Shown: positions 2,496 through 57,920, numbered from the stretch's first letter. The stretch: 64,000 bases of DNA from an uncultured Gammaproteobacteria bacterium (GCA_964344965.1 CAYFPJ010000001.1:86771-150770), one strand, 5' to 3'. Numbers and translations: made by a program. The notes: generated by a model from the sequence alone, not told the origin.

Positions 2496-5400
2496 ATGAA
2501 TTTTGTTCACCTTCATACTCACTCTCATTATTCTCTTTTGCGTGGGTTGCCAAAAATTAAAGAGCTAGTAACCGCTGCCAAACAGAAGGGTTTTTCTGCT
2601 ATTGCACTTACAGATTATGGGGCCATGTACGGGGCAATTGAATTTTATAAAGAATGTCAAAAACAAGATATAAAGCCGATCATTGGTTTCGAGGCATACT
2701 TGGCTCCGAGAAATCATACTGACAAAGATTCACAGCATGATAAAGAATTTTCCAATTTGGTGCTACTGGCCAAAAATTATGACGGCTATCGTAACTTGAT
2801 GAAACTTTGTTCCATTTCACACCTCGATGGATTTTTTGATGGCAAGCCAAGAGTTGATAAAGATTTGTTGCGACAGTATAGCAAAGATATAATTTGTTTG
2901 TCCGGCTCTATCCTAGGAAATATTCCTCGCTTATTAAAAAATAATGATTTGGAAGGAGCAAAAAAAGAAGCTTTGGAGCTCAATGAAATTTTTGGGCCTG
3001 ATAATTTTTATCTGGAAATGCAAGATCATCCGGGAATAGAAGGTCAGCTGGATGTGAACACAAAATTGACTCAGATGTCAAAGGAAACCGGAATACCACT
3101 TGTTGTCAGTCGCAATGTTCATTATTTGGAGCCAGATCAATCTGAAGCCCAGGATGTCTTAGTCTGTATTGGTGAAGGGTGGAAGATAGGTCAGACAGAT
3201 CGTGTAGATTATCGTCACGTCGATCGGTCTCTCAATACAGGAGAGGATATTGCTTCTCGTTTTCGTCATGTGCCAGAGGCAATAGAGAACACTGTCAAGA
3301 TTGCTGACATGGTCAATATTGAAATAGAGCTAGACAAGTGGCATTTCGCGCCAGTAGATTTACCAAAAGATAAGAATGCAGATGAATTTCTTCGTGATGA
3401 GGTTTACAAATATGTAGGAAATTTTTATGATCCAGTGACAGAAGAGATAAAAGAGCGAATTGAATACGAGCTAGACATTATAAAAAACAAAGGATATTCA
3501 CCATATTTCATCTGCGTGGCAGACTATGTTCGCTATGCCAAGGATAATGGAATAGTAGAATCCACTCGTGGTTCAGCAGCAGGATCAGTAGTCTCCTATG
3601 TTCTTGGAATTACTACTGTTGATCCAATTCACTTCAAACTCCCTTTTGAACGTTTTCTAAATCCATTTCGTCCCAGTCCTCCTGATGTAGATACTGATTT
3701 TGCCGATGACCGACGAGATGAGATGATCGAGTATGTAACTAATAAATATGGTGTTGATAAAGTTGCTCAGATCATTACATTCGGATCTATGGCAGCAAGA
3801 GCTAGTGTGCGTGATGTGGGTCGGGTACTTGGTTTTTCTTATGGTTTTTGTGATCAGGTAGCTAAGCTGATTCCTATAGGAGCCCAAGGTTTTCCTATGA
3901 CAATCGAGCGTGCCCTAAAAGAAGAGCCAGATTTGAAAAAATTGTACGATACAAATGAGGACGTAAAGCGTCTCCTCGGTCTGGCCCAGCAAGTGGAAGG
4001 GTGTGCTAGACATACTTCTATTCATGCTGCTGGGGTGGTAATTTCTCCTACACCACTAACTGATTTTACCCCAGTCCAAAGAGAAACCGGGGGAGAGCGT
4101 ATTCTCACTCAGTACAGCATGTATGACGTAGAGTCTGCCGGAGTTCTGAAGAATGATTTTCTTGGGATTCGTAATCTTTCTATCCTTGGAAAGGCTGTGG
4201 AGATCGTGGAAAAAACAACAGGCGAGCGTGTCGATATTTATAACCTTCCACTCGACGATATAAAAACATATGAAATGATTTCACGCGGAGAAACAATGGG
4301 AGTATTTCAGTTTGGTAGCTCGGGGATGCAGCGGTGGATCAAAGAACTTAAGCCGACAAACATCGACGATATCATGGCTATGGTCGCACTATATCGTCCC
4401 GGGCCAATGGATTTCATTCCAGAGTATATTCGTCGCAAACACAACCCAGAAGTAATTGATTATCCGCATCCGGATATTGAAGAGATTCTTGAGAAGTCGC
4501 TCGGACTCTTGATTTATCAAGATGATATCATGCTTACGGCGATCAAGCTTGCTGGCTATGATTGGCTTGAGGCAGACAAATTTCGTAAGGCGATGGGGAA
4601 GAAAATTCCTGAGCTTATGATTGAGCAAGAGAAAAAGTTTAAGCAAGGATGTGTTGAAAATAAGATTCCAAAAGATACCGTGGAAGATTTGTGGAATCGT
4701 ATCAAACCCTTTGCATCTTACGGATTTAATAAAGCACATGCCGCAAGCTATGGCATGGTTGCATATCAGACTGCTCACATGAAGGCTCACTATCCGGTGC
4801 AGTATATGACAGCCGTCCTTCAAGCTGAGTCACATGATGCTGACAAGATTTCTGCTATTGTAGGTGAGTGTAGAAGAATAGGTATTGAAGTGCTACCACC
4901 CGATGTCAACGAAAGTTTCAAATCTTTTGCAATGATCTCAAAACCTGGCGAGAAGGGAAGAATTCGATTTGGTCTCACTGCTATCAAGAATGTGGGTGAT
5001 CATATTTGTGAAGTAATTTATCAAGAAAGAAAGAAGAATGGTCAGTACAAAAGCTTGGAAGATTTTCTTGAGAGAATAGAAGATAAAGATCTGAACAAAA
5101 AGTCAGTAGAGAGTCTAGCAAAGACTGGGGCTCTTGATTGTTTTGGAATTGATCGCGGGGTCTTGATGGCTAATAGTGAGAATATTCTCGGATTTATTCG
5201 TCAAGAAAAAGAGAGGAGACAGACAAATCAGGATTCATTATTTGCCGGGACAAGTATTGCTATTGATTCTAAAGTCAGAATTGTAGAATCAGCAGAAGCT
5301 ACAATGGATGAAAAATTGGTTTGGGAAAAAGAATTGCTTGGAATATATGTGTCTTCTCACCCGTTTGCTTATTATCAAAAGTTTTTGGGAGAAAAAATAA

Positions 5401-5969: not shown

Positions 5970-5975
5970 TGGCAA

Positions 5976-6056
5976 TGTCATTCTGAGTGAAACGAAGAAT
6001 CTGTATTCAGGAAGACACCCTCTATAAGAAAGATCCTTCGCTGCGCTCAGGATGAC
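5976..6056. repeat. family B palindromic element (GTCATYCTGAGYG...AGATCCTTCGCTGCGCTCAGGATGAC)
   Basis: Imperfect inverted repeat; its arms match those at 21605-21685, 30190-30313 and 14908-14936. Confidence 0.6.
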
Positions 6057-6059
6057 AAA

Positions 6060-7001
6060 CTATAGATCATTCACCGATTTCACACTCTCATTGTTATGAA
6101 TTCTCTTGATCACTTCGGCAAATCTACTGGTGACAGATACTATCTCTGTGTCTCGCAGATTATGTCTGGCAATCGGAATGGTGTCTGTGGTGAGGAATTT
6201 TCTAATTGGTGAAGCATTCAATTTTTCTCCTGCCCCTTCACCAAGGTTGGCATGGATAAAGCAGGCATCAACACTCTTTGCTCCTGCTGTTTCTAATAAA
6301 TATTTAGCATCTTCGATTAAAGTCCCGCCACTGAGAGTCTCATCGTCTATGATGAGACATTTTTTTCCTTTCACATCACCAAGGACGCTTTTTATTTTTA
6401 CTTTTTCATCATTCCCAACTCTTCTTTTGTCCATCATGGCTATTGGTAGATGCAGGCTGTCAGCGTAGGGCTCTACTAGCTTGGCAGCTCCACTATCTCC
6501 AGCCACCAAGATATAGTTTTCCATATTACTATTTTCTTTTATATATTTCGTAATGTCTGGGGCGGCAATCAGATGGTCGCAAGGGATATTGAAGAAACCA
6601 TGGAGCTGAGGAGAATGCATCTCCATAATGATAACTCGATTGGCTCCAGCAGTCTGGAGCATGTCAGCCATTAGTTTGCCAGTGATACAGATTCTGGGCT
6701 GATCCTTCTTGTCTGATCTTGAGTAAGGGAAGTAGGGGAGGACAGCTGTGATTCTCTTGGCTGAAGCATCACGAAGCGTACGGATATAGATAAGAAGTTC
6801 CATGATATGGGCGTCGACTGGAGGAGTGTGAGATTGAATGACAAATACATCATCGCCGCGCACTGGTTCATCTACTGTGATGAATCTGTTTTCATTACTG
6901 AAGGTGAAAGATGTGGTCTTAGTTTCTTCTATGCCAAGATGCTCGCATATTTTTTTGGTGAATTGTTTGTGACTTGATCCTCCTATGATTTTGAGTGACA
7001 T
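6060..7001 (-). CDS. prs: ribose-phosphate pyrophosphokinase (PRPP synthetase)
   Basis: 313 aa with a PRTase-type fold and an N-terminus MSLKIIGGSSHKQF that matches the Prs family. Confidence 0.88.
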   Translation of the reverse strand: MSLKIIGGSSHKQFTKKICEHLGIEETKTTSFTFSNENRFITVDEPVRGDDVFVIQSHTPPVDAHIMELLIYIRTLRDASAKRITAVLPYFPYSRSDKKDQPRICITGKLMADMLQTAGANRVIIMEMHSPQLHGFFNIPCDHLIAAPDITKYIKENSNMENYILVAGDSGAAKLVEPYADSLHLPIAMMDKRRVGNDEKVKIKSVLGDVKGKKCLIIDDETLSGGTLIEDAKYLLETAGAKSVDACFIHANLGEGAGEKLNASPIRKFLTTDTIPIARHNLRDTEIVSVTSRFAEVIKRIHNNESVKSVNDL

Positions 7002-8946: not shown

Positions 8947-10161
8947 TTAATTATAGATATGGTTGGGATTTGATAAGTTAGTCTTGATAGAACGCATAAT
9001 TAAGACATCTATTAGTATAGCAGAAGCCATGATGGCTAGTACAATCTGGAAGGCTGTGCTCGATATACTAGGCACAAAGAAAAATAATCCATAACCGACC
9101 ACTCGACTGGCAAAGACATAAATCCATTCTCTGATAACAATATATTCTACACGGTGATTTTTGTAATCTGGAATTTGGTGAAGCAAATTGTCGCGGTATG
9201 TTTTGGCTGGAATTTGAAGAAGTGGTAAGAAAATTTCTCGAGCAAATCCATAAAAGATATAAGTAAATAGAATGGGGAAGCCAACGAGAGTCATGGTAGC
9301 AATAAAAAATAATGAGCCACCAATAGTAAGAATAAATCTATACTTAGAATAAGGGACTTTTTTCCCAAGGAAAAGAACTACAATTATTCCAAAGAGAGAA
9401 AACAAGGAAAGCAGTCCTCCCAAATGTAGCTCACTATTTATAATATCAAAAATAAATACTGGCAATAGTCTTTCGATAGCACCTTTGTATCCAATGTTCC
9501 CAAAAAATCTGGCTAAGATTAGTTTTACGATATCTTTTTTTTGCCAGATTAATTTTAATGTTTTTCTATAATGGAGAGGAGGGGATTTGTGATTTTCAAC
9601 TTTTACAAATCCGATGAAGATTGAAAAAATATAAACTATGATGCTGATGATAAAAATATTACCATAACCAAGATTTAAAAAATTCAGTCCAATCGCTGCC
9701 CCTCCCAAGATAGGGGCAAAGATGGAGATACTAGTAGTGAGGGCTTGCATGGTCCCGTTGAAATTGCCACGGTTTTTGGTGTGAGTAGTTTCAAATTGAA
9801 GAAACAAGTAGCTAATCCAGTACATACCATTGAAAAATCCAATCATAGATCCTGTCAGAATAAGATGATTAGCCACATAGTCTTTTAGAATAAATAGAAT
9901 GAGATAAATAATTGAAGAACCAATAAGACTAAGTACTCTTGGGGTGTGGTGTTTGCCTTTTTTTACAACACTAGCAAAAAGGGTAAATGAAATGATGTGA
10001 GCCGTAATAAGAGCAATCGAATAAATAGCCAGAGATCTGAGTGAATTGGTTTCACCCCACAGAAAGACAACGAAAAATATATTGAAAATGGAGCGACCAA
10101 ACATTGCTAGAGAGTGCGATACAATCAGCCTTTGGACATTTTTACTGAGATTGTTATTCAT
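8947..10161 (-). CDS. polytopic membrane transporter, MFS-like
   Basis: 404 aa with about 12 hydrophobic segments. Confidence 0.5.
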   Translation of the reverse strand: MNNNLSKNVQRLIVSHSLAMFGRSIFNIFFVVFLWGETNSLRSLAIYSIALITAHIISFTLFASVVKKGKHHTPRVLSLIGSSIIYLILFILKDYVANHLILTGSMIGFFNGMYWISYLFLQFETTHTKNRGNFNGTMQALTTSISIFAPILGGAAIGLNFLNLGYGNIFIISIIVYIFSIFIGFVKVENHKSPPLHYRKTLKLIWQKKDIVKLILARFFGNIGYKGAIERLLPVFIFDIINSELHLGGLLSLFSLFGIIVVLFLGKKVPYSKYRFILTIGGSLFFIATMTLVGFPILFTYIFYGFAREIFLPLLQIPAKTYRDNLLHQIPDYKNHRVEYIVIREWIYVFASRVVGYGLFFFVPSISSTAFQIVLAIMASAILIDVLIMRSIKTNLSNPNHIYN

Positions 10162-12759: not shown

Positions 12760-12840
12760 CATGCTGAGTAACCCCTCCGCCCTTCCACCTTCGCTAAAAC
12801 TACGGCAGACAGGGCGGGCATCTCCCCTTATAAAGGGGAG
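12760..12840. repeat. GC-rich nested hairpins (CCACCTTCGCTAAAACTACGG motif; TCCCCTT ataaa GGGGAGGA)
   Basis: Read directly. A related motif, CCACCTTCGCTAAGGCTACGGTGG, occurs at 20197-20220. Confidence 0.4.
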
Positions 12841-13715: not shown

Positions 13716-13729
13716 ACTGATCAGTTTTT

Positions 13730-13810
13730 ATCTGTCTAATCTGTTAGATCTGTGTTCTATTTAATTACACCATTTAGATAGAACACGGATTGAACTGATC
13801 TAACTGATTT
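13730..13810. repeat. family C palindromic element (TAGATCTGTGTTCTAT...ATAGAACACGGATT)
   Basis: Inverted repeat; related copies lie at 49760-49864 and 57841-57920. Confidence 0.6.
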
Positions 13811-13819
13811 GAACGGATT

Positions 13820-14907: not shown

Positions 14908-14936
14908 AAAAGATCCTTCGCTACGCTCAGGATGAC
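14908..14936. repeat. family B half element (AGATCCTTCGCTACGCTCAGGATGAC)
   Basis: A single arm of the family B palindrome. Confidence 0.5.
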
Positions 14937-15403
14937 AATTCTAGGCTATTCTTTTTAGTCCATGGTGCATGTTGTTGCCATAATGAGTTATTATTTTTTA
15001 TCATCTTACGCAGTTCTGTTCCAGAAATATTAATATTAATCTTAATCTTTTTTACATTATATCCTTTTTCTTCAAACAAACCCGCTACCCATTCATTACC
15101 AGTATAGACTACATCAAAACTTCCAACGATCTTCACCACATGGTCGATCCAATTTTTTTCGTCATGAATATCTGGAATGGCAAGTATTTTGTAATTTAAA
15201 TTTTGATCTTGAAGAGATTTTTCAATCATTTCTTTTCTTTCTTCAAAAGTCCAGGGATTTTCATCAGTATCGCTATACTGTGAACTACCAACTCCAATAA
15301 TTATTTCGTCTTCTGAAATTTGTTTCAAGGCATCGAGGTGGCCGAGATGGAAGGGTTGGAAGCGGCCGATGAAGAGGACTTTTTGCATAGACACAGATTG
15401 CAC
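14927..15403 (-). CDS. nicotinamide/nicotinate mononucleotide adenylyltransferase, archaeal NadM-like
   Basis: 158 aa with a FIGRFQPFHLGH nucleotidyltransferase motif; it sits inside the NAD biosynthesis operon. Confidence 0.75.
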   Translation of the reverse strand: MQSVSMQKVLFIGRFQPFHLGHLDALKQISEDEIIIGVGSSQYSDTDENPWTFEERKEMIEKSLQDQNLNYKILAIPDIHDEKNWIDHVVKIVGSFDVVYTGNEWVAGLFEEKGYNVKKIKININISGTELRKMIKNNNSLWQQHAPWTKKNSLELSS

Positions 15404-21586: not shown

Positions 21587-21604
21587 TTTGTTTTTAATAG
21601 AAAT

Positions 21605-21685
21605 TGTCATCCTGAGCGCAGCGAAGGATCTTTCTTGTAGAGGACTTCTTCCTTACTAAAGATCCTTCGCTGCGCTCAGGATGAC
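21605..21685. repeat. family B palindromic element, full copy
   Basis: GTCATCCTGAGCGCAGCGAAGGATCTTT ... AAAGATCCTTCGCTGCGCTCAGGATGAC. Confidence 0.7.
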
Positions 21686-21696
21686 ATACGATTTAT

Positions 21697-24689: not shown

Positions 24690-24690
24690 G

Positions 24691-24860
24691 ATAATTTACA
24701 ATTTATAATTTTCAATTTAAAAACAATTTTTAATTTATAAATTTATAATGTTACAAATTTGTCGCTCACTTCGACGAGTTATGTTTTGTGGGTTTTATAA
24801 ATTTAAAATTGAGTCATTAGAAATTGTTTAAAAATTTCAAATTGAAAATTATAAATTTTT
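24691..24860. repeat. family F AT-rich MITE-like element (TIR AATTTACAATTTGAAATTTTTAAACAATTT / AAATTGTTTAAAAATTTCAAATTG...)
   Basis: About 30-bp terminal inverted repeats. Copies lie at 26918-27080, 32616-32776 and 46978-47260. Confidence 0.65.
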
Positions 24861-26641: not shown

Positions 26642-26917
26642 ATGAACAACCTCCACCTCACTATCCACGGCCAAGTCCAAGGAGTTTTCTTTCGTCAGAC
26701 AGCTTGTGAAAAGGCAAGTGAGCTTGGCCTGACTGGCTGGGTAAAAAATAATCCAGACGGAACAGTGGAGATCGTGGCTGAAGGCAGGGAGCAAGACTTG
26801 AAAAAATTGTTGGAATGGTGTAAAGAAGGACCGGAGTATGCTCATGTTGAGAGGGTTGTGGAGGAGTGGCGAGATGTGGAGGAGAGGAAGTTTGAGGAGT
26901 TTAGAGTAATGTATTAA
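26642..26917 (+). CDS. acyP: acylphosphatase
   Basis: VQGVFFR...GWVKNNPDGTVEIVAEG signature; 91 aa. Confidence 0.85.
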   Translation: MNNLHLTIHGQVQGVFFRQTACEKASELGLTGWVKNNPDGTVEIVAEGREQDLKKLLEWCKEGPEYAHVERVVEEWRDVEERKFEEFRVMY

Positions 26918-27080
26918 TTTGAAATTTACAATTTGAAATTTTTAAACAATTTTTAATTTATAAATTTATAATGTCACAAATTCACTTTTCACTCCGAAGA
27001 GTTATGTTTTGCAGGTTTTATTAATTTAAAATTCAGTCATTAGAAATTGTTTAAAAATTAAAAATTTCAAATTAAAAATT
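26918..27080. repeat. family F MITE-like element
   Basis: Same TIRs and core (TTATAAATTTATAATGTCACAAATT ... AGTCATTAGAAATTGTTTAAAAATT) as the copy at 24691. Confidence 0.65.
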
Positions 27081-28574
27081 GTGTTAACTGATTACCAACG
27101 CTACCGTCTCTACGAAATCCTCCCCGGTCTCTCTATTTGGGGTACTTTGATATTGGCTATTTTTCTCTCATTTGTGAAGCCTTTATGGATGATTTATTTT
27201 ATCATCATCTTTGATATTTACTGGGTTTTGAAAGTAATTAATTTTTCTTTTTATTTGATAGTGGCTTGGAGCAGATTTCGACAGACCAGAAGGATTGATT
27301 GGAAAGATAAAATCAAACATGAATTAACAAACTATCAAGATAAATATCACCTAGTTTTCCTCACACTATATAATGAGGAGTGGGAAGTGGTAGAAACTGC
27401 AGTCGATAGTATTGCCAAGGCTGTCTATGATCGAGACAAGTTTGTCATCGTGGTGGCTGGCGAAGAACGGAAGAAAGAACACTATCAAAATATCTTGAGT
27501 CATATCAAGAATAAATTTTATAATAATTTCCATGATATTGTGGGAGTTTGTCACCCGAGTGACTTGCCGGACGAGATCCCAGGCAAGGGGTCCAATCTCC
27601 ACTATGCCGAACGAGAAATGAAAAAATACATTGATGAAAGAGATTGGAATTATGACAAAATAATTACCACTATTTTTGATATCGATACTGTCTGTCATCA
27701 CCAGTACTTTGCTTATCTTACTTATCTGTACTGCACTCACCCCAATCCAACCCGCAGCTCTTATCAACCAATCGCAGTCTACAACAACAACATTTGGGAT
27801 TCTCCAGCAGTACTCAGGATCATGGCTTTTGGTACCACCTTTTGGATGCTCACTTCTCTTGCCAGACAAGATGCTCTTGTCACTTTCTCTTCTCACTCTA
27901 TGAGCTTCCGAGCGATAGTCGATGCTGGATTTCATGAGAAGCGAATTGTCAGTGAAGACTCCAGAATTTTTTATCAATGCTTACTTGCTTATGATGGTAA
28001 CTATGAAGTAACACCAATGTACTTGCCAGTATCCATGGATACTGTTCGTGATGACAAGTGGAAAAAAAGTATTAAAAATCTCTACAATCAACAAAGGCGT
28101 TGGGCCTGGGGAGTAGAGCATGTTCCATATCTGCTCTGGGAATTTCGCAAAAAAGGAGAGTCTATTCCACTTTGGAAAAAGTTCAAATGGGTTTTCATCG
28201 AATGGGAAGGGAAGTGGTCTTGGTGTTTGATCGCTCTTCTCATTACTGTCCTTGGTCAATTACCGCTATGGGTGGCTCCAGAATCAGTTAGGCAGAGCGC
28301 CTTGTTTTTCAATGCTCCGCACATGTTGCAGATTCTCATGACTAGCGCCATGCTAGGGCTTGTACTTTCTGCTATACTGAGTTTACCACTTTTGCCACGA
28401 CGTCCAGAGTCACATCCTCGACACAAGTACGTGATCATGGTTTTGCAGTGGGTTCTTTTGCCAATCTCTCTAATATTTATTAGTGCTATCCCGGCAATCG
28501 ACGCTGTTACTCACATGATGAGGGGTAAGTATTTGGGATTCAATGTTTCGCAGAAGAAGCGTCTTAGGCACTGA
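27081..28574 (+). CDS. family 2 glycosyltransferase, processive type (cellulose/chitin synthase-like), membrane-bound
   Basis: QQRRW motif (NLYNQQRRWAWG), multiple TM segments and a GTG start. Confidence 0.7.
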   Translation: MLTDYQRYRLYEILPGLSIWGTLILAIFLSFVKPLWMIYFIIIFDIYWVLKVINFSFYLIVAWSRFRQTRRIDWKDKIKHELTNYQDKYHLVFLTLYNEEWEVVETAVDSIAKAVYDRDKFVIVVAGEERKKEHYQNILSHIKNKFYNNFHDIVGVCHPSDLPDEIPGKGSNLHYAEREMKKYIDERDWNYDKIITTIFDIDTVCHHQYFAYLTYLYCTHPNPTRSSYQPIAVYNNNIWDSPAVLRIMAFGTTFWMLTSLARQDALVTFSSHSMSFRAIVDAGFHEKRIVSEDSRIFYQCLLAYDGNYEVTPMYLPVSMDTVRDDKWKKSIKNLYNQQRRWAWGVEHVPYLLWEFRKKGESIPLWKKFKWVFIEWEGKWSWCLIALLITVLGQLPLWVAPESVRQSALFFNAPHMLQILMTSAMLGLVLSAILSLPLLPRRPESHPRHKYVIMVLQWVLLPISLIFISAIPAIDAVTHMMRGKYLGFNVSQKKRLRH

Positions 28575-28710: not shown

Positions 28711-30198
28711 ATGTTTTTTAGAAGAAAGAAAAAATCTAGTATTTGGAAATGGCTGTTTGGTTCTTGTTTAATTGTGGTTATTTCTTTTGCAATTTTTAGT
28801 TACTATGCCTTGCGTGATTTTGATTTGGCCACTGTGATTGATAATGATTTTGTAGAAGAGGTAATTCGGGCTGAGCTAAGTGAAGACCAAGGTGAAATTT
28901 TGGATATATTGCCGATAGTTTTGGGATTTACAGAGCCCAAGACTTACTTATTCCTTTTCCAAAACAACACAGAATTAAGACCAGGTGGAGGGTTTATTGG
29001 TGTCTATGCAGTTGTGGAAGTGGATAGAGGAAGTATGGAAATTGTTGAAGTTGAGGGGAGTGGAATTTTGGACAAAAGAGCTTCAAAAGATCTTTTACAG
29101 CCCCCACCTGAACCAGTCGGAGAATATCTGGGTGTCGACAGGTGGTATTTCCGTGACAGTAATTGGTCTCCAGACTTCGAAGAAAGTGCCAAAAAAGCTC
29201 TTGAGTTTTATAAAATTGAAGATGGGGTGAAAGCAAATGAAATTGATGTTGTGGTCGGAATTACCCCAACAGTTTTAGAAAGATTAATGAAAATTACAGG
29301 TGACTTCACTATTGAAGGTGTAGATTTTACTACTGAAAGTGTGACAGAGACTCTAGAATACGAAGTAGAATATGGTTATAAAGAAAAAGGAATTGTTTTT
29401 GAGGAGAGAAAAGCTATCATAAGACCATTTATGGAGGCACTTGTGAAAAGAGTGAAAGACACTTTGTTTGAAAATTATGAAAAATATTTTGATACCTTAC
29501 TAGATCTTGCTCATGAAAAACATTTGGTTTTCTTTTCCAAGACAGATGATCTCCAATTTTTGTTAGATCAGTTTGATTTGTCTGCAAACGTATTTGATAC
29601 AGAGGGCGATTATTTACTTTGGGTAGATGCCAATCTTGGTGCTTTAAAAACTGATCATGCTATGGACAGAACTTTGGACTATACTCTGTCCAAGCGTCCA
29701 GCTGCTCATGAGAGTGAATCAGATCGCTATCTTGCTTCGGCTACTATGGAATATGATCATCAGGGTACTTTTGATTGGCGGACTAGTCGCTATCTGACCT
29801 ATGCCAGAGTCTATGTGCCAAAAGGTTCAAAGCTGGTGTCTGTAGTTGGTAAAAAGAAAAATGGACAAGATATAAAATTGGAAGAAGTGGATAGCGGTGA
29901 AGAGCTTGGCAAACAATGGTTTGGGACTTATTTTTCAGTTGAGCCAGGTAACAAAAAATTATTATCATTTATTTATCAGTTACCATCAAATATAAAAGAA
30001 AATATTGATAGTAATAACTATAATTTAACCATTCAAAAACAACTTGGCACGGTTGATCACAGATTGACGCTCCACCTTGATTTTGGTAAGCTTATTCAGT
30101 CTGCAAATCCGGCTGAGTCAGAAGAAAAATGGGGCGATACTACTTATGAATACGAAGGTGACCTGAGGTTGGATCGGGAGTTTAATATTTCATTCTGA
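28711..30198 (+). CDS. DUF4012-like membrane-anchored protein
   Basis: N-terminal TM, then NTELRPGGGFIGVYAVVEV, which resembles the DUF4012 core. This family is often found beside glycosyltransferases. Start set at the ATG at 28711. Confidence 0.55.
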   Translation: MFFRRKKKSSIWKWLFGSCLIVVISFAIFSYYALRDFDLATVIDNDFVEEVIRAELSEDQGEILDILPIVLGFTEPKTYLFLFQNNTELRPGGGFIGVYAVVEVDRGSMEIVEVEGSGILDKRASKDLLQPPPEPVGEYLGVDRWYFRDSNWSPDFEESAKKALEFYKIEDGVKANEIDVVVGITPTVLERLMKITGDFTIEGVDFTTESVTETLEYEVEYGYKEKGIVFEERKAIIRPFMEALVKRVKDTLFENYEKYFDTLLDLAHEKHLVFFSKTDDLQFLLDQFDLSANVFDTEGDYLLWVDANLGALKTDHAMDRTLDYTLSKRPAAHESESDRYLASATMEYDHQGTFDWRTSRYLTYARVYVPKGSKLVSVVGKKKNGQDIKLEEVDSGEELGKQWFGTYFSVEPGNKKLLSFIYQLPSNIKENIDSNNYNLTIQKQLGTVDHRLTLHLDFGKLIQSANPAESEEKWGDTTYEYEGDLRLDREFNISF

Positions 30199-30313
30199 GC
30201 GCAGCGAAGAATCTTTCGGAGTCAATACACTTACATCATACAAATAATATATGTATATTGAATATTATTCACTCCGAAAGATCCTTCGTCGTCCTTTGGG
30301 ACTCCTCAGGATT
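30190..30313. repeat. family B palindromic element, degenerate
   Basis: TCATTCTGAGCGCAGCGAAGAATCTTTCGGAG ... CTCCGAAAGATCCTTCGTCGTCC. Confidence 0.55.
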
Positions 30314-31403: not shown

Positions 31404-32615
31404 ATGAAAACAAACTTTGATTCAATTGAGGATGCTGTCCGTGCTATAAAAGATGGAGAGGTGGTAATTATCGTCGATGACGAGGGTCGGGAGAATGAGG
31501 GAGACCTAGTAATGGCGGCCGAGTACGTCACAGAAGAGCAAATGGCTTTCATCATCCGTCACACTGGCGGAGTTGTTTGTCTTGCAGTGGAAAACGATCT
31601 AGCCGACAGATTGGATTTACCACCGATGGTGGTCAAAAATACTTCCAAATTAGAGACTGCTTTCACAGTCAGCATCGAGGCTAAAGAGGGGACGACCACA
31701 GGTATTTCAGCTCAGGATCGAGTAACGACCATCAAGGCTGCCATTGCTGATGACGCTAAGCCAGATGATTTGTCTCGTCCTGGCCATGTTTTTCCACTGC
31801 GAGCCCAGCATGGTGGTGTGCTTTGGCGCGGGGGGCACACCGAAGCTTCGGTTGATCTCTGCAATTTGGCTGCCGTCAAGCCGGCTGCGGTGATAAGTGA
31901 ACTTATGGATGATGATGGTAAGATGATGCGTCTACCAGAGTTGCTTAAATTCGCCGAAGAACACAATCTGGCGATTGTCTCAGTAGCTGACCTGATTGCT
32001 CACAGACACAAGAATGAATCCTTCATCGAACTGGCGGCAGAAACAGACTTGCAGACCAAGACCGGAATCTGGCAAATGAAAGTCTATAAGGACTTGCTTC
32101 ATGGTACTCTCCATACTGCTTTAGTCAAAGGAGATGTCAGTGGCGATCAATCAGTTCTAGTTCGTGTTCATTCAGAATGCTTCACTGGTGATGTGCTCGG
32201 GTCTCTTCATTGTGATTGTGGGCAGCAGTTGTCAAAAGCAATGGCTGATATCGAAAAAGAAGGTTCAGGAATTATTCTCTATATGGAGCAAGAGGGAAGA
32301 GGGATTGGATTGGTTAATAAAATAAAAGCTTATCAGCTCCAACACAAAAAAGGTCTTGATACGGTGGAAGCCAATTTGGCTCTTGGTCTACCAGAAGATC
32401 TCCGTGAATATGGAATAGGAGCGCAGATTATCAAGGATCAGGGAGTACGCAAGATTCGTCTCATGACAAATAATCCTAAGAAGATGGGGGGAATTACAGG
32501 TTATGGAATAGAAGTTGTCGAGCAAGTTCCGATTGAGATTCCAGCCAATGGAGTGGATGATAAATATTTGCAGACTAAGAAGGAGAAGATGGGGCACGTG
32601 TTGAGTAATTTTTAA
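31404..32615 (+). CDS. ribBA: bifunctional 3,4-dihydroxy-2-butanone-4-phosphate synthase / GTP cyclohydrolase II
   Basis: RibB and RibA domains are both present; the GTP cyclohydrolase half has CxCGxQL zinc ligands. Confidence 0.9.
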   Translation: MKTNFDSIEDAVRAIKDGEVVIIVDDEGRENEGDLVMAAEYVTEEQMAFIIRHTGGVVCLAVENDLADRLDLPPMVVKNTSKLETAFTVSIEAKEGTTTGISAQDRVTTIKAAIADDAKPDDLSRPGHVFPLRAQHGGVLWRGGHTEASVDLCNLAAVKPAAVISELMDDDGKMMRLPELLKFAEEHNLAIVSVADLIAHRHKNESFIELAAETDLQTKTGIWQMKVYKDLLHGTLHTALVKGDVSGDQSVLVRVHSECFTGDVLGSLHCDCGQQLSKAMADIEKEGSGIILYMEQEGRGIGLVNKIKAYQLQHKKGLDTVEANLALGLPEDLREYGIGAQIIKDQGVRKIRLMTNNPKKMGGITGYGIEVVEQVPIEIPANGVDDKYLQTKKEKMGHVLSNF

Positions 32616-32776
32616 TTTATAATTTAAAATTTTTAAACAATTTTTAATTAATAAATTTACAATGTTACAAGTTTAATACTTGCTTTGACATACTGTATTT
32701 ATAAGTTTTGTACATTAAAAATTAAATCATTGTAAATTGTTTTCAAATTAAAAATTTCAAATTGTAAATTTTCAAT
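32616..32776. repeat. family F MITE-like element
   Basis: Shared TIRs; the central part diverges. Confidence 0.6.
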
Positions 32777-43051: not shown

Positions 43052-43297
43052 ATGTCAGAAAGAGACAGAAGAAGGAGAGGTAGAAGAAGGACTGGTGACC
43101 AGCCCGCATCTCCTGAACAATCAGTAGTGGAAAGACAAGAGTCTTGGTTTGATGCATTTGAAAAAAAACACAAAGAAAATATCAGACAAGCAATACTTGA
43201 AAAATACGATGTGTTTGAAGAATTTGAAAATGTGACCCCCGTTGAATCTTTAAGCGGTTTTATTCCTCGATGCTTGCATCGAAAAAGTGAAAACTAA
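43052..43297 (+). CDS. hypothetical small Arg-rich protein
   Basis: 81-aa ORF; its last 50 nt fall inside the 145-bp direct repeat. Confidence 0.3.
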   Translation: MSERDRRRRGRRRTGDQPASPEQSVVERQESWFDAFEKKHKENIRQAILEKYDVFEEFENVTPVESLSGFIPRCLHRKSEN

Positions 43298-43389
43298 CAT
43301 TGGTTGAAATAAGATTTTCTGCCAATACCCCGCAGCTTGCTGCGGGGATGGCCCGATGAAGTCTTACTTAAACCAAATTTACTTTTATT
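43245..43389 (+). repeat. 145-bp direct repeat, copy 1 (identical to 47019-47163)
   Basis: Base-by-base comparison shows identity across all 145 nt. It contains the hairpin CCCCGCAGC ttgc TGCGGGG. Confidence 0.85.
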
Positions 43390-45005
43390 TTCAAGGGGAT
43401 ATAAAAGGTCGGGTGGTTGATATTATTCTGGAGAGAGAATTAGCTTTCTGTCGTCATTTGTTTGATAGACTGGAAGACATAAATAATAGACTAAGAACTA
43501 GTCAAGAGGATTTGTCGCCAGATGATTCTGATTCACATCTGGTATTACAATTCAATACTTCCATGCTCTATGATGTAGATGAAACTTTGTATACGAAATG
43601 TTTCTCAAAAGGTGTTATTCGTCCTAGTGCCAGAATTATTTTGCAATCTCTTCACGAAGATTATGGTGTTATTAATGGTATTGTTACTACTAGAAATGAT
43701 GATGTAGTAAGAAGGCAGTTGGCAGGAGAATATAGAGAAAACAATATAGATGATATATCAGAATATATAGATAATCAATATGTGTATGGTATGCCAGGCA
43801 CTGTTTCATTTGATCTTAGCGGGCTTCGTATAGATACACTATTGGGCCAATATGACATAGAATCTCCGAGATTGGGTGTATTTTTACCAGGGACTAGATA
43901 TATTTCTCCAGAAGATGCGTGGAGAGAATCTGTTGAAGCAGTAGAGGGTGTAAGTATAGAAGGATTAGAAGAATTATTGTCCAGTCAAAGTGGACTGGAT
44001 ATGTATACCAAGTCTTTGAAAAGAGGTTTTTATGGAAAATTATTTAGAGAAAATCCCGACATGCCAATGCTAGATGATTTAGAAGAGAGATATTTGAAAT
44101 ATCTGGAAGAACAGGCACGGCACCTTCAACGTTATTTGGACGAACAAAAGGCAGAAATAGACGAAGCAGATATTGGTGAAAAATGGGATAAATTATTTCA
44201 ATTTTTTCAGTATGATAATACCATATTCACCGATGACGGCAGGGATCCTGTGTTGCCAGATTTCCTAGATGCAGAAAAATTGGGGATTCTCCGTGAATTG
44301 TTTTTAGTTTTTGGTAAGGAAGATAAAGAGCTTGTGGATTATTTTGACAGTCCAGAATTAGCTCAGGAGTTTTGGGAAACAATAGGTAAGAGACTATATA
44401 ATTATCTCCTTACTAATTATGCAGAATTCAATTTTGGAGGATCTCTTGCGCAACCAGAAAAAGTTCTAGAAGATATTAAAGATAAAATAAAGGCACGTGC
44501 CAACAAATTTTCAGAATCTGACTTTTTTGTTAAATTGGACATGATGGGTAGAATAATTGATAGAGAGGAATGGAGTCATGAGATGATAAAAGTGATAACT
44601 TCTCATCGCAAAATTGTAAAAAAATACGAGGACAATAATGTCGAAGCATACAGAGATTTGTTTGTTGGTTTGTCTAAACTATTTGGGATAAATATAAAAA
44701 AAAGAAAAAATGAAATAAATTTATCTATTGTTTTTTGGAAGCTTATCCAGGCAAAAAATGCTATTGATAACAGTGGAGATGACAATGTGGTGGTATCTAT
44801 TGCTATAGATAATGAAGAGTTGGCCGAAAAATTTTATGAGTTACTTAGCGGGAAAATAGAAGATGAAGATGGTGTGGTTGATGGCTATGCGATGTTTGGT
44901 CTAGATGATCCTAAGTATCGGGATAAGGTTTATTTGATTTCGTGTGGAAAACGAGGAGTATTTTCTGAAAAGGAAATTAAAAAGGAATTGCAACAAGCTG
45001 CCTAA
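43356..45005 (+). CDS. hypothetical 549-aa protein with N-terminal HAD-like DxDxT motif
   Basis: MLYDVDETLYT matches HAD motif I and GIVTTRN resembles motif II; the long C-terminal region is unassigned. The first 11 codons lie inside the direct repeat. Confidence 0.5.
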   Translation: MKSYLNQIYFYFQGDIKGRVVDIILERELAFCRHLFDRLEDINNRLRTSQEDLSPDDSDSHLVLQFNTSMLYDVDETLYTKCFSKGVIRPSARIILQSLHEDYGVINGIVTTRNDDVVRRQLAGEYRENNIDDISEYIDNQYVYGMPGTVSFDLSGLRIDTLLGQYDIESPRLGVFLPGTRYISPEDAWRESVEAVEGVSIEGLEELLSSQSGLDMYTKSLKRGFYGKLFRENPDMPMLDDLEERYLKYLEEQARHLQRYLDEQKAEIDEADIGEKWDKLFQFFQYDNTIFTDDGRDPVLPDFLDAEKLGILRELFLVFGKEDKELVDYFDSPELAQEFWETIGKRLYNYLLTNYAEFNFGGSLAQPEKVLEDIKDKIKARANKFSESDFFVKLDMMGRIIDREEWSHEMIKVITSHRKIVKKYEDNNVEAYRDLFVGLSKLFGINIKKRKNEINLSIVFWKLIQAKNAIDNSGDDNVVVSIAIDNEELAEKFYELLSGKIEDEDGVVDGYAMFGLDDPKYRDKVYLISCGKRGVFSEKEIKKELQQAA

Positions 45006-45032
45006 ATTTTGTTTATATAAAAATTAATCACT

Positions 45033-45776
45033 ATGAAACACATCTTCGCCAACTGGAAAATGTATCTCAATTTTGATGAGACCATGATCCTCACCAACCA
45101 ACTATTGGCAGAAAATTTTGATACAGAAAAAATTAATTTAGCAGTTTTTCCCAATGCCCTTGCGACAAGCGAAGTGCTCAAGGCGACACAAGATAGTTCA
45201 ATTAGTGTAGGTGCTCAGACTGCCAACTGGACACCACGAGGGGCCTATACTGGAGCTATTTCTGCTGATTTTTATAGCAGCCTTGGGTGCCAGTATGCTC
45301 TAGTTGGTCACTCAGAGAGACGCTATATTTTTGGAGAGACTTATGAAGATGTGAGGAAGAAGTTAGAAGCAATCATTGACGCAAAGCTAACTCCAGTCTT
45401 ATGCATTGGAGATACAAAAGGAGATCAAGATGATGGTAAGGCAGAATATAGGCTGAAAAAACAACTGATGAAAGCATTAGAGAATTTGGAACTTGATGGT
45501 AGCGAGTTGATTATTGCCTATGAGCCAGTTTGGGCTATTGGCAGCGGAGAGCCCTGCATGCCAGAAGACGCAAACAAAATGGCAAACATTATAAAAATGG
45601 AAACAAAACAATACATTGATAAAGAAATTTCCATTCTTTATGGTGGTAGTGTAAAGGCAGAAAATGTGCTATCATATTTGTCACAAGACAACATTTCTGG
45701 TGTGTTGGTGGGAGGAGCATCTGCCAAATTTGAGACCTTAATGCCTATTATTCGTGAAATAGAAAATATTTCTTAA
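45033..45776 (+). CDS. tpiA: triosephosphate isomerase
   Basis: ANWKMY, GHSERR and AYEPVWAIGSG motifs are all present. Confidence 0.92.
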   Translation: MKHIFANWKMYLNFDETMILTNQLLAENFDTEKINLAVFPNALATSEVLKATQDSSISVGAQTANWTPRGAYTGAISADFYSSLGCQYALVGHSERRYIFGETYEDVRKKLEAIIDAKLTPVLCIGDTKGDQDDGKAEYRLKKQLMKALENLELDGSELIIAYEPVWAIGSGEPCMPEDANKMANIIKMETKQYIDKEISILYGGSVKAENVLSYLSQDNISGVLVGGASAKFETLMPIIREIENIS

Positions 45777-45827
45777 CTCCGGGTTGGTCTAAATACATAA
45801 TTTATTTTTTGTTGTTCAAGTCAGATT

Positions 45828-46715
45828 ATGCTAGATATAATCCCATTTATTCTCATTATTTTATCTTTATCTTCTATCGTGATTCTTATTGTACGCAAAT
45901 TCCCTCAGTTAAGCATACTAGATGTTGACACCATACCAGAAGCAAAAGAAGAAAGGAAGAAAGACGAGATTATAATGAATCGAGTAAAGAAAAAGACAAA
46001 AGAAAAAGACAGTCTCTGGAGGCAGCGCACCTTGCCCCTGGTAAAGAAATGGGGAGATGTCCAGCTTTCATTTCGTAAGTATGTTGGTAAAATAAAAAGA
46101 GATGTAATGGAAGAAGAACAGAATAAAATTGTCAGCAACTCTTCTAGTTATTCAGGGTTTGATATCCGCAATTTACTGACTGAGGCCAAAAGTGCTGCTG
46201 AACAAAATGAATGGGAAGATGCAGAAAAGGTATATATTGCTCTTATCAAGCGTGACACAAAGAATAAAGAAGCGTATAAAGGTCTGGCTGATGTTTACTT
46301 TTCTCAAGGGCAGCTCGATGAAGCCAAAGAGACCTACAAATTTTTACTACAATTTGACTCAAAAAATGAAGCGGTATTTACAAAGCTGGCTGAAATAAGC
46401 GAAGAGCAAAACAATCTAGAAGATGCTGTCATGTACTATCAGCAAGCAGTATTAATCAAAGATAATGTCCCTGATATTTTTGTAAAAATATATGAATTAC
46501 TGCTGAGACTTAATCAGGGTGATAGTGCTCTAGAGGCAATCAGGCAAGCCGTAGAATTATCACCAAACAACCCCAAGTATCTTGACAAATTAATAGAAGC
46601 TAGTATAATGGTCGGGAATAAGAAATTGGCAGAAGAAGGATATCAGCAATTACGGATGACAGACCCAGAGAATAGGAGATTGGGAGTCTTGAAGGATAAG
46701 ATAGACAGGTTATAA
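45828..46715 (+). CDS. TPR-repeat protein with N-terminal TM anchor
   Basis: An N-terminal hydrophobic segment followed by several 34-aa TPR-like repeats. Confidence 0.6.
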   Translation: MLDIIPFILIILSLSSIVILIVRKFPQLSILDVDTIPEAKEERKKDEIIMNRVKKKTKEKDSLWRQRTLPLVKKWGDVQLSFRKYVGKIKRDVMEEEQNKIVSNSSSYSGFDIRNLLTEAKSAAEQNEWEDAEKVYIALIKRDTKNKEAYKGLADVYFSQGQLDEAKETYKFLLQFDSKNEAVFTKLAEISEEQNNLEDAVMYYQQAVLIKDNVPDIFVKIYELLLRLNQGDSALEAIRQAVELSPNNPKYLDKLIEASIMVGNKKLAEEGYQQLRMTDPENRRLGVLKDKIDRL

Positions 46716-46809
46716 CAATTGACCTTTGACAATTAACAATTAACTTTTTTGAAAAAGCTACATGACAATTAGTCAATTGTCAAAAGTTAAATGTTAATTG
46801 TAGCATTAT

Positions 46810-46830
46810 GCCAACTTAGATCAGCTGGTC
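46810..46830 (+). pseudogene. duplicated 5' fragment of tRNA-Thr (GCCAACTTAGATCAGCTGGT) followed by the GC hairpin CCGCCTACGCTGAAGCTTCGGCGG
   Basis: Matches the first 21 nt of the tRNA at 46900 with one mismatch; there is no T-arm. Confidence 0.6.
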
Positions 46831-46899
46831 CGCCTACGCTGAAGCTTCGGCGGATAAATGCCGCAATCGTTTTGTTCTTTCAATTATTATACAACACAT

Positions 46900-46975
46900 G
46901 CCAACTTAGCTCAGCTGGTAGAGCAATGGTTTTGTAAACCATCGGTCCGGGGTTCGAGTCCCCGAGTTGGCTCCA
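46900..46975 (+). tRNA. tRNA-Thr (anticodon UGU), CCA encoded
   Basis: Acceptor GCCAACT/AGTTGGC, D GCTC/GAGC, anticodon stem ATGGT/ACCAT with loop TTTGTAA, T-arm CGGGG TTCGAGT CCCCG, discriminator T, then CCA. Confidence 0.85.
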
Positions 46976-46977
46976 CG

Positions 46978-47260
46978 ATAATTTACAATTTGAAATTTTT
47001 AATTTGAAAACAATTTTAAATCTTTAAGCGGTTTTATTCCTCGATGCTTGCATCGAAAAAGTGAAAACTAACATTGGTTGAAATAAGATTTTCTGCCAAT
47101 ACCCCGCAGCTTGCTGCGGGGATGGCCCGATGAAGTCTTACTTAAACCAAATTTACTTTTATTGATTTAATTTTTTAATTTTAAAATTTGTTTAGTCCAT
47201 TGAATAATTAAAAATTAAGACATTGTTTAAAAATTTCAAATTGTAAATTATAAATTTAAC
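46978..47260. repeat. family F MITE-like element interrupted by copy 2 of the 145-bp direct repeat (47019-47163)
   Basis: Left TIR at 46978-47018 and right portion at 47164-47260. The inserted segment is identical to 43245-43389. Confidence 0.6.
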
Positions 47261-47265
47261 AATAC

Positions 47266-47333
47266 GGGTCGGTACTCAAGCGGTCAACGAGGGCAGACTG
47301 TAAACCTGCCTGCCGGCAGGTCTGCTAGAGTAC
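47266..47333 (+). pseudogene. tRNA-Tyr-like 5' fragment with a GC hairpin (CCTGCCTGCCGGCAGG) inserted after the anticodon loop; no T-arm
   Basis: GGGTCGGTACTCAAGCGGTCAACGAGGGCAGACTGTAAA parallels the 5' half of the real tRNA-Tyr at 47344. Confidence 0.55.
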
Positions 47334-47343
47334 TAACTAAAAT

Positions 47344-47426
47344 GGGTCGGTAGCGAAGCGGTCAAACGCAACAGACTGTAAATCTGTCGGTATATACCTT
47401 CGAAGGTTCGAATCCTTCCCGGCCCA
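47344..47426 (+). tRNA. tRNA-Tyr (anticodon GUA) with long variable arm
   Basis: Acceptor GGGTCGG/CCGGCCC, anticodon stem ACAGA/TCTGT with loop CTGTAAA, variable arm CGGTATATACCTTC, T-arm GAAGG TTCGAAT CCTTC, discriminator A. Confidence 0.85.
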
Positions 47427-47499
47427 CACAGGAAGACACTGCCAAATTGGTGGTGTTTTTTATATTTTTTTCTTGCAAAACAATTCAAAATGGTGTTTA

Positions 47500-49759: not shown

Positions 49760-49864
49760 TTAGGTAATAGAACACGGGCCTTCGGCACACGGATTCAACG
49801 GATATGAACGGATTTAATACGTGTCAATCCGTTGAATCCGTGTCATCCGTGTTCTATTACCTAA
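49760..49864. repeat. family C palindromic element (TTAGGTAATAGAACACGG ... CCGTGTTCTATTACCTAA)
   Basis: Nested inverted repeats with ACGGATTCAACGG / CCGTTGAATCCGT inside. Confidence 0.65.
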
Positions 49865-51038: not shown

Positions 51039-51154
51039 GTCATTGCGAGGAGAGAGTCGGAGCCAAAGCGAAGAAGAACGACGTGGCAATCTCATCGTTT
51101 TTACACAAAACCCATGAGATTGCCACGTCGTTCTTTCAGACTCCTCGCAATGAC
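51039..51154. repeat. family A MITE-like element
   Basis: TIR GTCATTGCGAGGAG / CTCCTCGCAATGAC with an internal inverted repeat ACGACGTGGCAATCTCAT / ATGAGATTGCCACGTCGT. Confidence 0.7.
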
Positions 51155-51183
51155 GAAATAGTTAGCGGATTTTATAATCTATA

Positions 51184-52708: not shown

Positions 52709-52747
52709 ACCAAAGTTTATCTTGAACTATAGAAAACTACAACTTTC

Positions 52748-52843
52748 GTCATTGCGAGGAGCGACGAAGGAGCGATCTATCTCATTGTTTTCTCTACTAC
52801 CACTGAGATTGCCACGTCGTTCTTTCAGACTCCTCGCAATGAC
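52748..52843. repeat. family A MITE-like element
   Basis: Same TIRs and orientation as the copy at 51039-51154. Confidence 0.7.
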
Positions 52844-52860
52844 GAATTAATTTTGAAAAT

Positions 52861-57823: not shown

Positions 57824-57840
57824 TAACTTGTAACCAGAGA

Positions 57841-57920
57841 ATAGAACACGGATTAAACGGATCGAACAGATAAAAACAGATCAGTTCAGATCAGTTTAAT
57901 CCGTTAGATCTGTGTTCTAT
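57841..57920. repeat. family C palindromic element (ATAGAACACGGATTAAACGG ... CCGTTAGATCTGTGTTCTAT)
   Basis: Read directly. Confidence 0.65.

Follow-up and report, generated by a model that had tools for sequence, protein, structure and literature searches.

The 64,000-nucleotide stretch analysed here (GCA_964344965.1, CAYFPJ010000001.1:86771-150770; hereafter the window, with positions counted from its first nucleotide) belongs to a metagenome-assembled genome of Candidatus Magasanikbacteria, a lineage of the Patescibacteria or Candidate Phyla Radiation (CPR). It carries two identical 145-bp segments, termed R copy 1 and R copy 2, which lie 3.8 kb apart in the same orientation. R is most probably a non-autonomous derivative of the IS200/IS605 family of insertion sequences (IS), comparable to palindrome-associated transposable elements (PATEs) and miniature inverted-repeat transposable elements (MITEs), that inserted twice and very recently. 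The two copies are independent insertions of one small mobile element, the first within a protein gene and the second within a palindromic spacer, and are not the boundaries of a larger unit. The excisable cassette with tpiA and a tRNA that a preliminary description of the window considered would accordingly resolve into two fresh insertions of a miniature single-strand transposon, and such elements would be, or recently have been, active in a CPR genome.

The repeat pair and its assembly

The two copies (Table 1) are identical at 145/145 positions on re-reading, and the match can be stretched to 148 nt with one mismatch when started at 43242 and 47016 (TTG against TTA). A 40-mer taken from R occurs exactly twice in the window and never in 100 shuffles, and an nhmmer search returned no further, diverged copy in the window. 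On the + strand, the gene order reads GlyRS, M16 peptidase, an 81-aa open reading frame (ORF), a 549-aa ORF, tpiA, a TPR/membrane protein, tRNA-Thr(TGT) at 46900-46975, tRNA-Tyr, metK, uppP and gpsA. R copy 1 takes in 53 nt at the 3' end of the 81-aa ORF (43052-43297) and 34 nt at the start of the 549-aa ORF (43356-45005), with the hairpin CCCCGCAGCTTGCTGCGGGG (43328-43347) between the two. The preliminary description had located copy 1 in the same way and had listed the 549-aa gene, tpiA, the TPR gene, a tRNA-Thr fragment and tRNA-Thr as the bracketed genes, which agrees with the gene calls made here.

The repeat pair is not an assembly artefact. Independent assemblies of four sequencing runs (ERR2281800-803, PRJEB17505), produced with MEGAHIT (k127) and by Logan, are 100% identical to the window and contain all four junctions between R and its flanks, which answers the concern about a collapsed repeat raised earlier. 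Every one of these assemblies breaks inside the 145-bp block, as expected of a true repeat that exceeds k: the upstream contig stops at 43371, a 3,861-bp middle contig extends over 43266-47126, the downstream ones begin at 47042, and no single short-read contig among them spans a copy of R. The flanks of copy 1 are two halves of one gene and those of copy 2 are two halves of one palindromic element. The linear order is fixed because the flanks of each copy pair in this manner.

Architecture and ends of R

R can be treated as a discrete element with defined ends because the insertions at the two sites consist of the same 145 bp. Its removal restores both the gene and the consensus of the palindromic repeat family described below, with no extra or missing bases, to within 3 nt. 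Alignment with related elements suggests that R consists of a left end (AATCT...ATTCC) followed by a hairpin with a G-CUUG-C loop (hairpin 1, R positions 23-38), a spacer, the right-end hairpin of an IS200 group (hairpin 2) and a 42-nt tail ending in TTTTATT. This tail is predicted to pair with the spacer, forming the 3' arm of a long imperfect hairpin. The self-complementarity of R amounts to 74% over about 100 nt and is internal (R positions 46-142). As RNA, R is predicted to fold with -44.8 kcal/mol (z = -5.1) and two stable G(CUUG)C tetraloops, and as single-stranded DNA with -23.6 kcal/mol (z = -3.9). Terminal inverted repeats are absent from R, whose ends AATCTTTAAG... and ...CTTTTATT are not inverted repeats of each other, and neither copy is accompanied by a target-site duplication.

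Table 1. Features of the two R copies, their insertion sites and other repeats (window coordinates unless a contig is named).
Feature	Position	Strand	Basis
R copy 1, probable 145-bp transposase-less IS200/IS605-type element in a protein gene	43245..43389	+	identity, ORF restoration, family left end
R copy 2, same element in palindromic spacer F4 between tRNA-Thr and tRNA-Tyr	47019..47163	+	L040 spacer without R; F4 minus R collinear with F1-F3
R left end AATCTTTAAGCGGTTTTATTCC and hairpin 1 (TCGATG-CTTG-CATCGA, 43267-43282)	43245..43282; 47019-47056 in copy 2	+	family left-end alignment
R hairpin 2, CCCCGCAG-CTTG-CTGCGGGG, right-end type	43328..43347; 47102-47121 in copy 2	+	20-mer in more than 120 metagenome contigs
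Long imperfect hairpin, R positions 39-142, hairpin 2 at the apex	43283..43386; 47057-47160 in copy 2	+	folds, self-complementarity
Putative target trinucleotide TTG	43242..43244	+	directly 5' of copy 1
Putative target trinucleotide TTA	47016..47018	+	directly 5' of copy 2
Native N-terminal part of the split gene, codons 1-64; now 81-aa ORF	43052..43244	+	hidden Markov model (HMM) and collinearity with P0002
Native C-terminal part of the split gene; now 549-aa ORF	43390..45005	+	HMM alignment
Family F members (F4/L040 variant ~125-135 bp)	24690-24857, 26915-27082, 32606-32773, 46977-47257; L040 3486-3608		
F4 left arm, host site of copy 2	46977..47018	+	F alignments, L040
F4 right part	47164..47257	+	F alignments, L040
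Other repeats	5975-6063, 14909-14940, 21602-21692, 30183-30217		
Other repeats	2296-2330 and 52746-52780		
Other repeats	2368-2400, 51099-51163 and 52788-52852		
Other repeats	13716-13819, 49805-49858 and 57840-57920		

The gene split by copy 1

With exactly the 145 bp of copy 1 taken out, codons 1-64 of the 81-aa ORF continue in frame into the 549-aa ORF from its codon 13, and the result is an uninterrupted ORF of 602 aa. In the present arrangement, R provides the last 17 codons and the stop of the 81-aa ORF (to 43297) as well as the GGGGA resembling a Shine-Dalgarno (SD) motif, the ATG (43356) and the first 11-12 codons of the 549-aa ORF. A word-indexed search returned one match, P0002, a single 447-aa protein encoded on another patescibacterial contig (L203 48-1391). 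P0002 is regarded as the positional orthologue because its gene immediately precedes tpiA and the TPR gene, which are 41% and 40% identical, respectively. Its alignment with the fused 602-aa ORF extends over residues 11-274 and is free of gaps at the junction (E = 5e-21). Counting P0002, about 20 homologues that are single polypeptides align with the fused ORF in this ungapped manner.

An exhaustive HMMER search places the split gene in a family of 28 members, most of which are single polypeptides of 430-590 aa. Against an HMM built from 16 family members, with the window's own sequences left out, residues 26-51 of the 81-aa ORF match positions 20-44 (E = 1.5e-4) and are also collinear with the N-terminus of P0002, and residues 20-549 of the 549-aa protein match positions 66-560. 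The 21 residues between these two blocks equal the 21 intervening HMM positions, and the fused ORF matches the model as a single domain with 213 bits, as opposed to 202 for the 549-aa protein alone. The 81-aa and 549-aa ORFs are thus halves of one ancestral gene cut by R copy 1. Copy 1 had previously been read as a native gene end followed by the start of the next gene; the 602-aa ORF, P0002 and the HMM show instead an insertion splitting one gene, and the annotation of two "genes" is corrected to two halves of a conserved one.

Members of the family share an invariant DxDxT motif, and R-P and R residues as well as the C-terminal domain are conserved. The split-gene protein has no sequence match in Pfam, PHROG or PDB, and the earlier designation of its 549-aa part as HAD-like (haloacid dehalogenase), which has the DxDxT motif as its only support, is tentative. 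The split gene, located between the M16 peptidase gene and tpiA, is conserved but of unassigned function.

The 81-aa and 549-aa ORFs had also been considered as a 2-kb foreign insertion, as about 50 relatives lack them between the M16 peptidase gene and tpiA, an idea that was revised because P0002 is a sporadically retained single gene at this very place. In another Magasanikbacteria genome, the same gap holds a 719-aa orphan ORF (L064 11260-13419), which is unrelated. The gap between the M16 peptidase gene and tpiA may be a site of recurrent gene gain.

The palindromic spacer interrupted by copy 2

Copy 2 is located inside the fourth member (F4) of an AT-rich palindromic repeat family of ~165 bp, termed family F, whose members F1 to F4 start at 24690, 26915, 32606 and 46977. 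Without R, F4 is collinear with F1-F3 across the junction (AACAATTTTA joined to GATTTAATT vs AACAATTTTTAATTTAT) and folds as one long hairpin, in which the insertion point of R corresponds to an unpaired internal loop. In the closest relative (L040), tRNA-Thr and tRNA-Tyr are separated by an orthologous F-type spacer, in which the left arm runs directly into the right arm and R is absent. Since this orthologous copy exists, the F element at this place is older than the divergence of the window's lineage from L040. Copy 2 is therefore a clean insertion into an older palindromic repeat, and the comparisons with L040 and F1-F3 agree with the preliminary description, in which it interrupted an otherwise intact family F element. 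The idea that R replaced the central ~55 bp of an F element by break repair was dropped, as L040 and a re-alignment show that F4 is naturally shorter and R a clean insertion.

The DNA between the copies

The order GlyRS-M16 peptidase-tpiA-TPR is kept in about 50 relatives, with a gap between the M16 peptidase gene and tpiA of only about 10-270 bp. In L040, whose M16 peptidase is 81% identical and whose gap measures 43 bp, the order continues with tRNA-Thr, tRNA-Tyr, metK, uppP and gpsA as in the window. In the five relatives scanned for tRNAs, the next genes are tRNA-Thr and tRNA-Tyr. The gene calls contain no integrase or recombinase gene between the R copies, and all bracketed genes are widely conserved except the 3' part of the split gene, for which P0002 is a positional orthologue. 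In view of the conserved M16-tpiA-TPR-tRNA order in relatives, the DNA between the copies is ordinary conserved chromosome and not cargo. None of the hallmarks of an att-type island, that is accessory DNA, a recombinase and a single integration event, was found here, and each R copy comes with empty-site evidence of its own.

Relationship to the IS200/IS605 family

More than 120 JGI metagenome contigs (L083-L202), whose GC contents range over 32-64%, contain the exact 20-mer CCCCGCAGCTTGCTGCGGGG between conserved flanks (GATA...NAGTTCATT). Clustering of the flanking ORFs revealed a recurrent small protein beside the hairpin which is Pfam Y1_Tnp, an IS200-like transposase (E = 1e-36). Complete elements carry a hairpin with a G-CTTG-C loop upstream of tnpA and, downstream of it, GATA, the hairpin and NAGYTTCATT, after which the similarity between copies stops. 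Where enough flanking sequence was available (n=83 hairpin copies), a Y1_Tnp gene adjoins the hairpin in 7/83 and about 92% are solo; the solo copies often lie 5-50 nt past the stop codon of ordinary genes. In 11/11 Y1_Tnp-adjacent cases, the gene is on the hairpin's strand at a distance of 5-103 nt. The solo hairpins are a cosmopolitan, REP-like dispersal (repetitive extragenic palindromic sequences) of the end of one IS200 subgroup.

The decisive alignment sets R beside those metagenome units in which nhmmer detected a match to R positions 10-105. Short two-hairpin elements among them consist of AATCTCTCNGGGTNNNATTCC directly behind TTN and hairpin A with a G-CTTG-C loop, a 20-45-nt spacer and then GATA, hairpin B and a terminal AGGTTCATT. 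The similarity of two such copies in L099 is confined exactly to the stretch from AATC... to ...TTCATT. The left ends of tnpA-bearing elements (L104, L184, L123 and Piscirickettsia L204) and of short ones from unrelated metagenomes (L099, L148, L088 and others) can be aligned with R positions 1-38. Hairpin 2 of R is the exact right-end hairpin of this group, which is preceded by (G/A)ATA, and stands in the place of hairpin B. The group includes an annotated IS200/IS605 tnpA element on the Piscirickettsia salmonis plasmid NZ_CP039244 (L204), which reads AATCTCTGAGGGTCTGATTCC-CCGAAGCTTGCTTCG, tnpA and GATA-CCTCGTAGCTTGCTGCGAGG-AGTATCATT. A pattern scan detected the left-end signature at the two R copies and at 23 positions in metagenomes, among which are the left ends of L104, L184 and L123. 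TTN stands directly 5' of AATC in 21/25 of these left ends, compared to a TT background of 0.072, and the sequences before the two R copies, GTTG and TTTA, fit this target. The top strand of both R copies is on the + strand, where the GC skew is positive window-wide. From this skew we infer that the + strand is the lagging-strand template, so that the two copies would be consistent with the strand bias known for the family.

IS200/IS605 elements are defined by subterminal imperfect palindromes, by ends that lack inverted and direct repeats, and by a left end placed 3' of a short target sequence particular to the element, on the template of lagging-strand synthesis (PMC5027513). The features described above agree with this definition. 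By analogy, a Y1 (HUH) transposase supplied in trans would move R by single-strand "peel-and-paste": its left end would join 3' of a TTN target on the lagging-strand template, with neither inverted-repeat ends nor target duplication, and its excision would be precise.

Several observations concern the wider element group. The element on the P. salmonis plasmid (L204 503-1061) sits inside an IS30-family transposase gene, with fragments of the IS30 coding sequence on either side, and has ATC 5' of AATC, an exception to the TTN rule. On contig L180 (~167-450, with an inverted copy at ~3617-3900), group II introns start 9 nt past the right-end hairpin (...AGGCTTCAT followed by GTGTG...), at the point of the IS terminus, which suggests hairpin-targeting (class C-like) introns using a transposon end as their insertion site. 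Contigs L150 and L088 have group II intron matches elsewhere on the hairpin-bearing contig, without such a precise relationship being shown. L102 contains identical inverted copies of a ~110-nt long-hairpin unit (~480-590 on the + and ~10010-10100 on the - strand) with the same CUUG hairpin at its apex (flanked by GAATA and ATGAA), another MITE-like derivative; its left end is of a second subtype, which is also present upstream of tnpA in L111, L189 and L152.

Three assignments were abandoned during this comparison. Hairpin 2, flanked by AATA and ATGG, had been taken for a hairpin of the left-end class until the full alignment placed hairpin 1 at the left and hairpin 2 at the right; larger ORFs ending just before solo hairpins had been considered as TnpB and are ordinary unrelated genes; and the peptide MKSYLNQ, considered as a relic of the tnpA N-terminus, was dropped because it is too short for a test and its position does not correspond to the start codon of L152. 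Searches of R against plasmids (blastn) and against 1.15 Mb of fetched loci, mostly from relatives (nhmmer), and of the hairpin string in the literature yielded nothing informative.

Weighing the origin of the two copies

The reading of R as a twice-inserted IS200/IS605 derivative has to be set against a number of weaker points. At the first site, the match of the 81-aa ORF is modest on its own (pairwise E = 0.006; HMM E = 1.5e-4) and draws its weight from collinearity, and an exact look-up of the reconstructed 602-aa protein found no R-free allele on record. At the level of the element, the TTN target is short (2-3 nt) and the argument from orientation has two copies to draw on. R runs 42 nt past the right-end hairpin and ends in ...TTTTATT, where the family has 9 nt and ...TTCATT; of this tail, only the terminal T-rich ATT motif resembles a canonical end (compare ...TTTATT in L174), and we infer which sequence of R serves as the right cleavage site. 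A Y1 transposase gene is absent from the 64-kb window and from the relatives' loci (1.04 Mb), and exact probes of 30 and 34 nt detected no copies beyond these two in viral contigs or JGI metagenomes.

The absence of a transposase gene from the window also speaks for local templated copying, according to which R inserted once and a 145-bp patch was then copied 3.8 kb away with no transposase involved, through template switching or the repair of a break at F4, a fragile palindrome, or else in the reverse direction. In its favour, the copies are direct repeats, close to each other and 100% identical, one of the two sites, a long AT-rich palindrome, could make replication forks stall, and the shared 2-nt TT just outside the left boundary could be a microhomology. 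A random patch, however, would not be expected to end at insertion boundaries at both sites, where gene and F consensus are restored, nor would its left boundary be expected to be exactly the AATC terminus of the transposon family with TTN before it both times, so that such copying is unlikely. An RNA-level intervening sequence, removed like an intron so that the 602-aa protein is still made, would account for the restored frame and for the strongly structured RNA with its two tetraloops, but the frame has a 1-in-3 chance of being restored anyway, the second copy lies in non-coding DNA, and R is homologous to the ends of DNA transposons. Furthermore, Rfam offers no intron or ribozyme match (only tRNAs reach the gathering threshold in the window, and a permissive scan of copy 2 gave chance-level hits) and 145 nt is far below the size of known self-splicing introns, which leaves this explanation with very little credit.

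The excisable or invertible 3.8-kb cassette of the preliminary description, thought to loop out by homologous recombination, is more improbable still. A perfect direct homology of 145 bp is in principle sufficient for RecA-mediated deletion, and short-read assemblies alone cannot tell the linear order from a deletion plus a circle. The segment, however, consists of syntenic housekeeping DNA with no integrase or recombinase (the synteny comparison that had been proposed as a check, run over about 50 relatives, went against a cassette), direct repeats delete and do not invert, and a deletion would take out tpiA and the window's only tRNA-Thr(UGU); each repeat, moreover, is an independent insertion with flanks that belong together. 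The same pairing of flanks makes it hardly credible that one copy is a collapsed or chimeric join, since a mis-join would not bring together the two parts of a single gene at one copy and of a single palindromic element at the other; the metagenome-assembled source, a repeat length slightly above the usual maximum k and the lack of a short-read contig across either copy would allow for such a join, but the four junctions recur at 100% identity in four runs and two assemblers. Insertion of a mobile element, very recently and at two sites, therefore remains the preferred account of R, and the earlier statement that perfect identity implies a very recent duplicative event is upheld. As a perfect repeat, R is long enough to break short-read assemblies, which happened in every independent one, and would also be long enough for lethal recombinational deletions.

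Comparison with known small mobile repeats

R probably belongs to a known kind of element, its right end being the unusual part. It resembles the IS200-type (tnpA-only) elements of P. salmonis, L104, L184 and L123 in its left end, its right-end hairpin with a GC-rich stem and its TTN target, as well as in lacking inverted-repeat ends and target duplication. Unlike the tnpA-bearing elements, it has no tnpA, measures 145 bp as opposed to about 575-600 bp, and ends in a 42-nt tail with TTTTATT instead of 9 nt with TTCATT. Its target (2-3 nt) is shorter than the 4-5 nt of IS608 and ISDra2.

PATEs are derivatives of IS200/IS605 elements that retain only the ends and are mobilised in trans (PMC7290912). 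R is likewise short, has palindromic ends only and is presumably trans-mobilised, and the short two-hairpin elements of L099, L148 and L088 are canonical PATE-type examples of its group. R differs from PATEs in its longer right-end tail, which pairs with the spacer into a ~100-nt hairpin. R also resembles the REP sequences and bacterial interspersed mosaic elements (BIMEs) that accompany REP-associated Y1 transposases (RAYTs), which are short hairpin repeats related to IS200/IS605 ends (PMC3333891). It departs from REP sequences in having a full IS200-type left end, no conserved 5' GTAG and two known copies, one of them in coding sequence.

Hairpin repeats associated with RAYT Y1 transposases also include REPINs, and small palindromic mobile repeats in or near genes, where they alter reading frames, include the Rickettsia palindromic elements and the Neisseria Correia elements. 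The former insert in frame and are translated, and the latter have inverted-repeat ends and a TA duplication. R is unlike both, as it has neither inverted-repeat ends nor a TA duplication and splits the gene. It is also unlike a classical MITE, a derivative of a DDE element, in having neither terminal inverted repeats nor a target-site duplication at either copy.

A bolder reading, to which we give little weight, would make R a structurally new IS200/IS605 mini-element whose right cleavage site lies 42 nt off the hairpin and is brought near by the ~100-nt hairpin, and which works as a "gene splitter" with benign effects, in a reduced CPR genome that perhaps lacks a transposase of its own. If this were true, R would give a stop, an SD-like motif and an in-frame ATG, so that the interrupted gene survives as two expressed pieces, and mobilisation would occur in trans, possibly by the transposase of another replicon or organism. 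For IS annotation, the subgroup can be recognised by its left end (AATC...ATTCC and hairpin), its right end (GATA, CCCCGCAGCTTGCTGCGGGG and NAGTTCATT) and its TTN target, with most copies being solo.

Neighbouring tRNA fragments and other repeats

Partial copies of both tRNA genes lie near F4. A truncated tRNA-Tyr copy (47266-47325) directly adjoins the right arm of F4. It comprises the 5' two-thirds and shares about 75% identity with the functional tRNA-Tyr (47344-47427), which lies 78 bp downstream. The position of the truncated copy is orthologous to the 5' end of the single intact tRNA-Tyr in L040, and compared to L040 the region looks like a ~78-bp insertion or partial duplication inside a tRNA gene. 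The first 22 nt of tRNA-Thr (ATGCCAACTTAGATCAGCTGGT) are duplicated at 46808-46829 (21/22 identical), 90 bp upstream of the real gene, and no counterpart precedes tRNA-Thr in L040. The window's duplicate is joined to a GC-rich hairpin repeat, CCGCCTACGCTGAAGCTTCGGCGG (region 46808-46860), which is also found at 12785 and 20204.

Other short GC-rich hairpin or palindromic repeat families, such as TGTCATCCTGAGCGCAGCGAAGGATCTTT and TCGTCATTGCGAGGAGCGACGAAGGAGCGATC, are scattered throughout the window (Table 1). The motif ACTCCTCGCAATGAC also occurs at the start of the unrelated contig L203.

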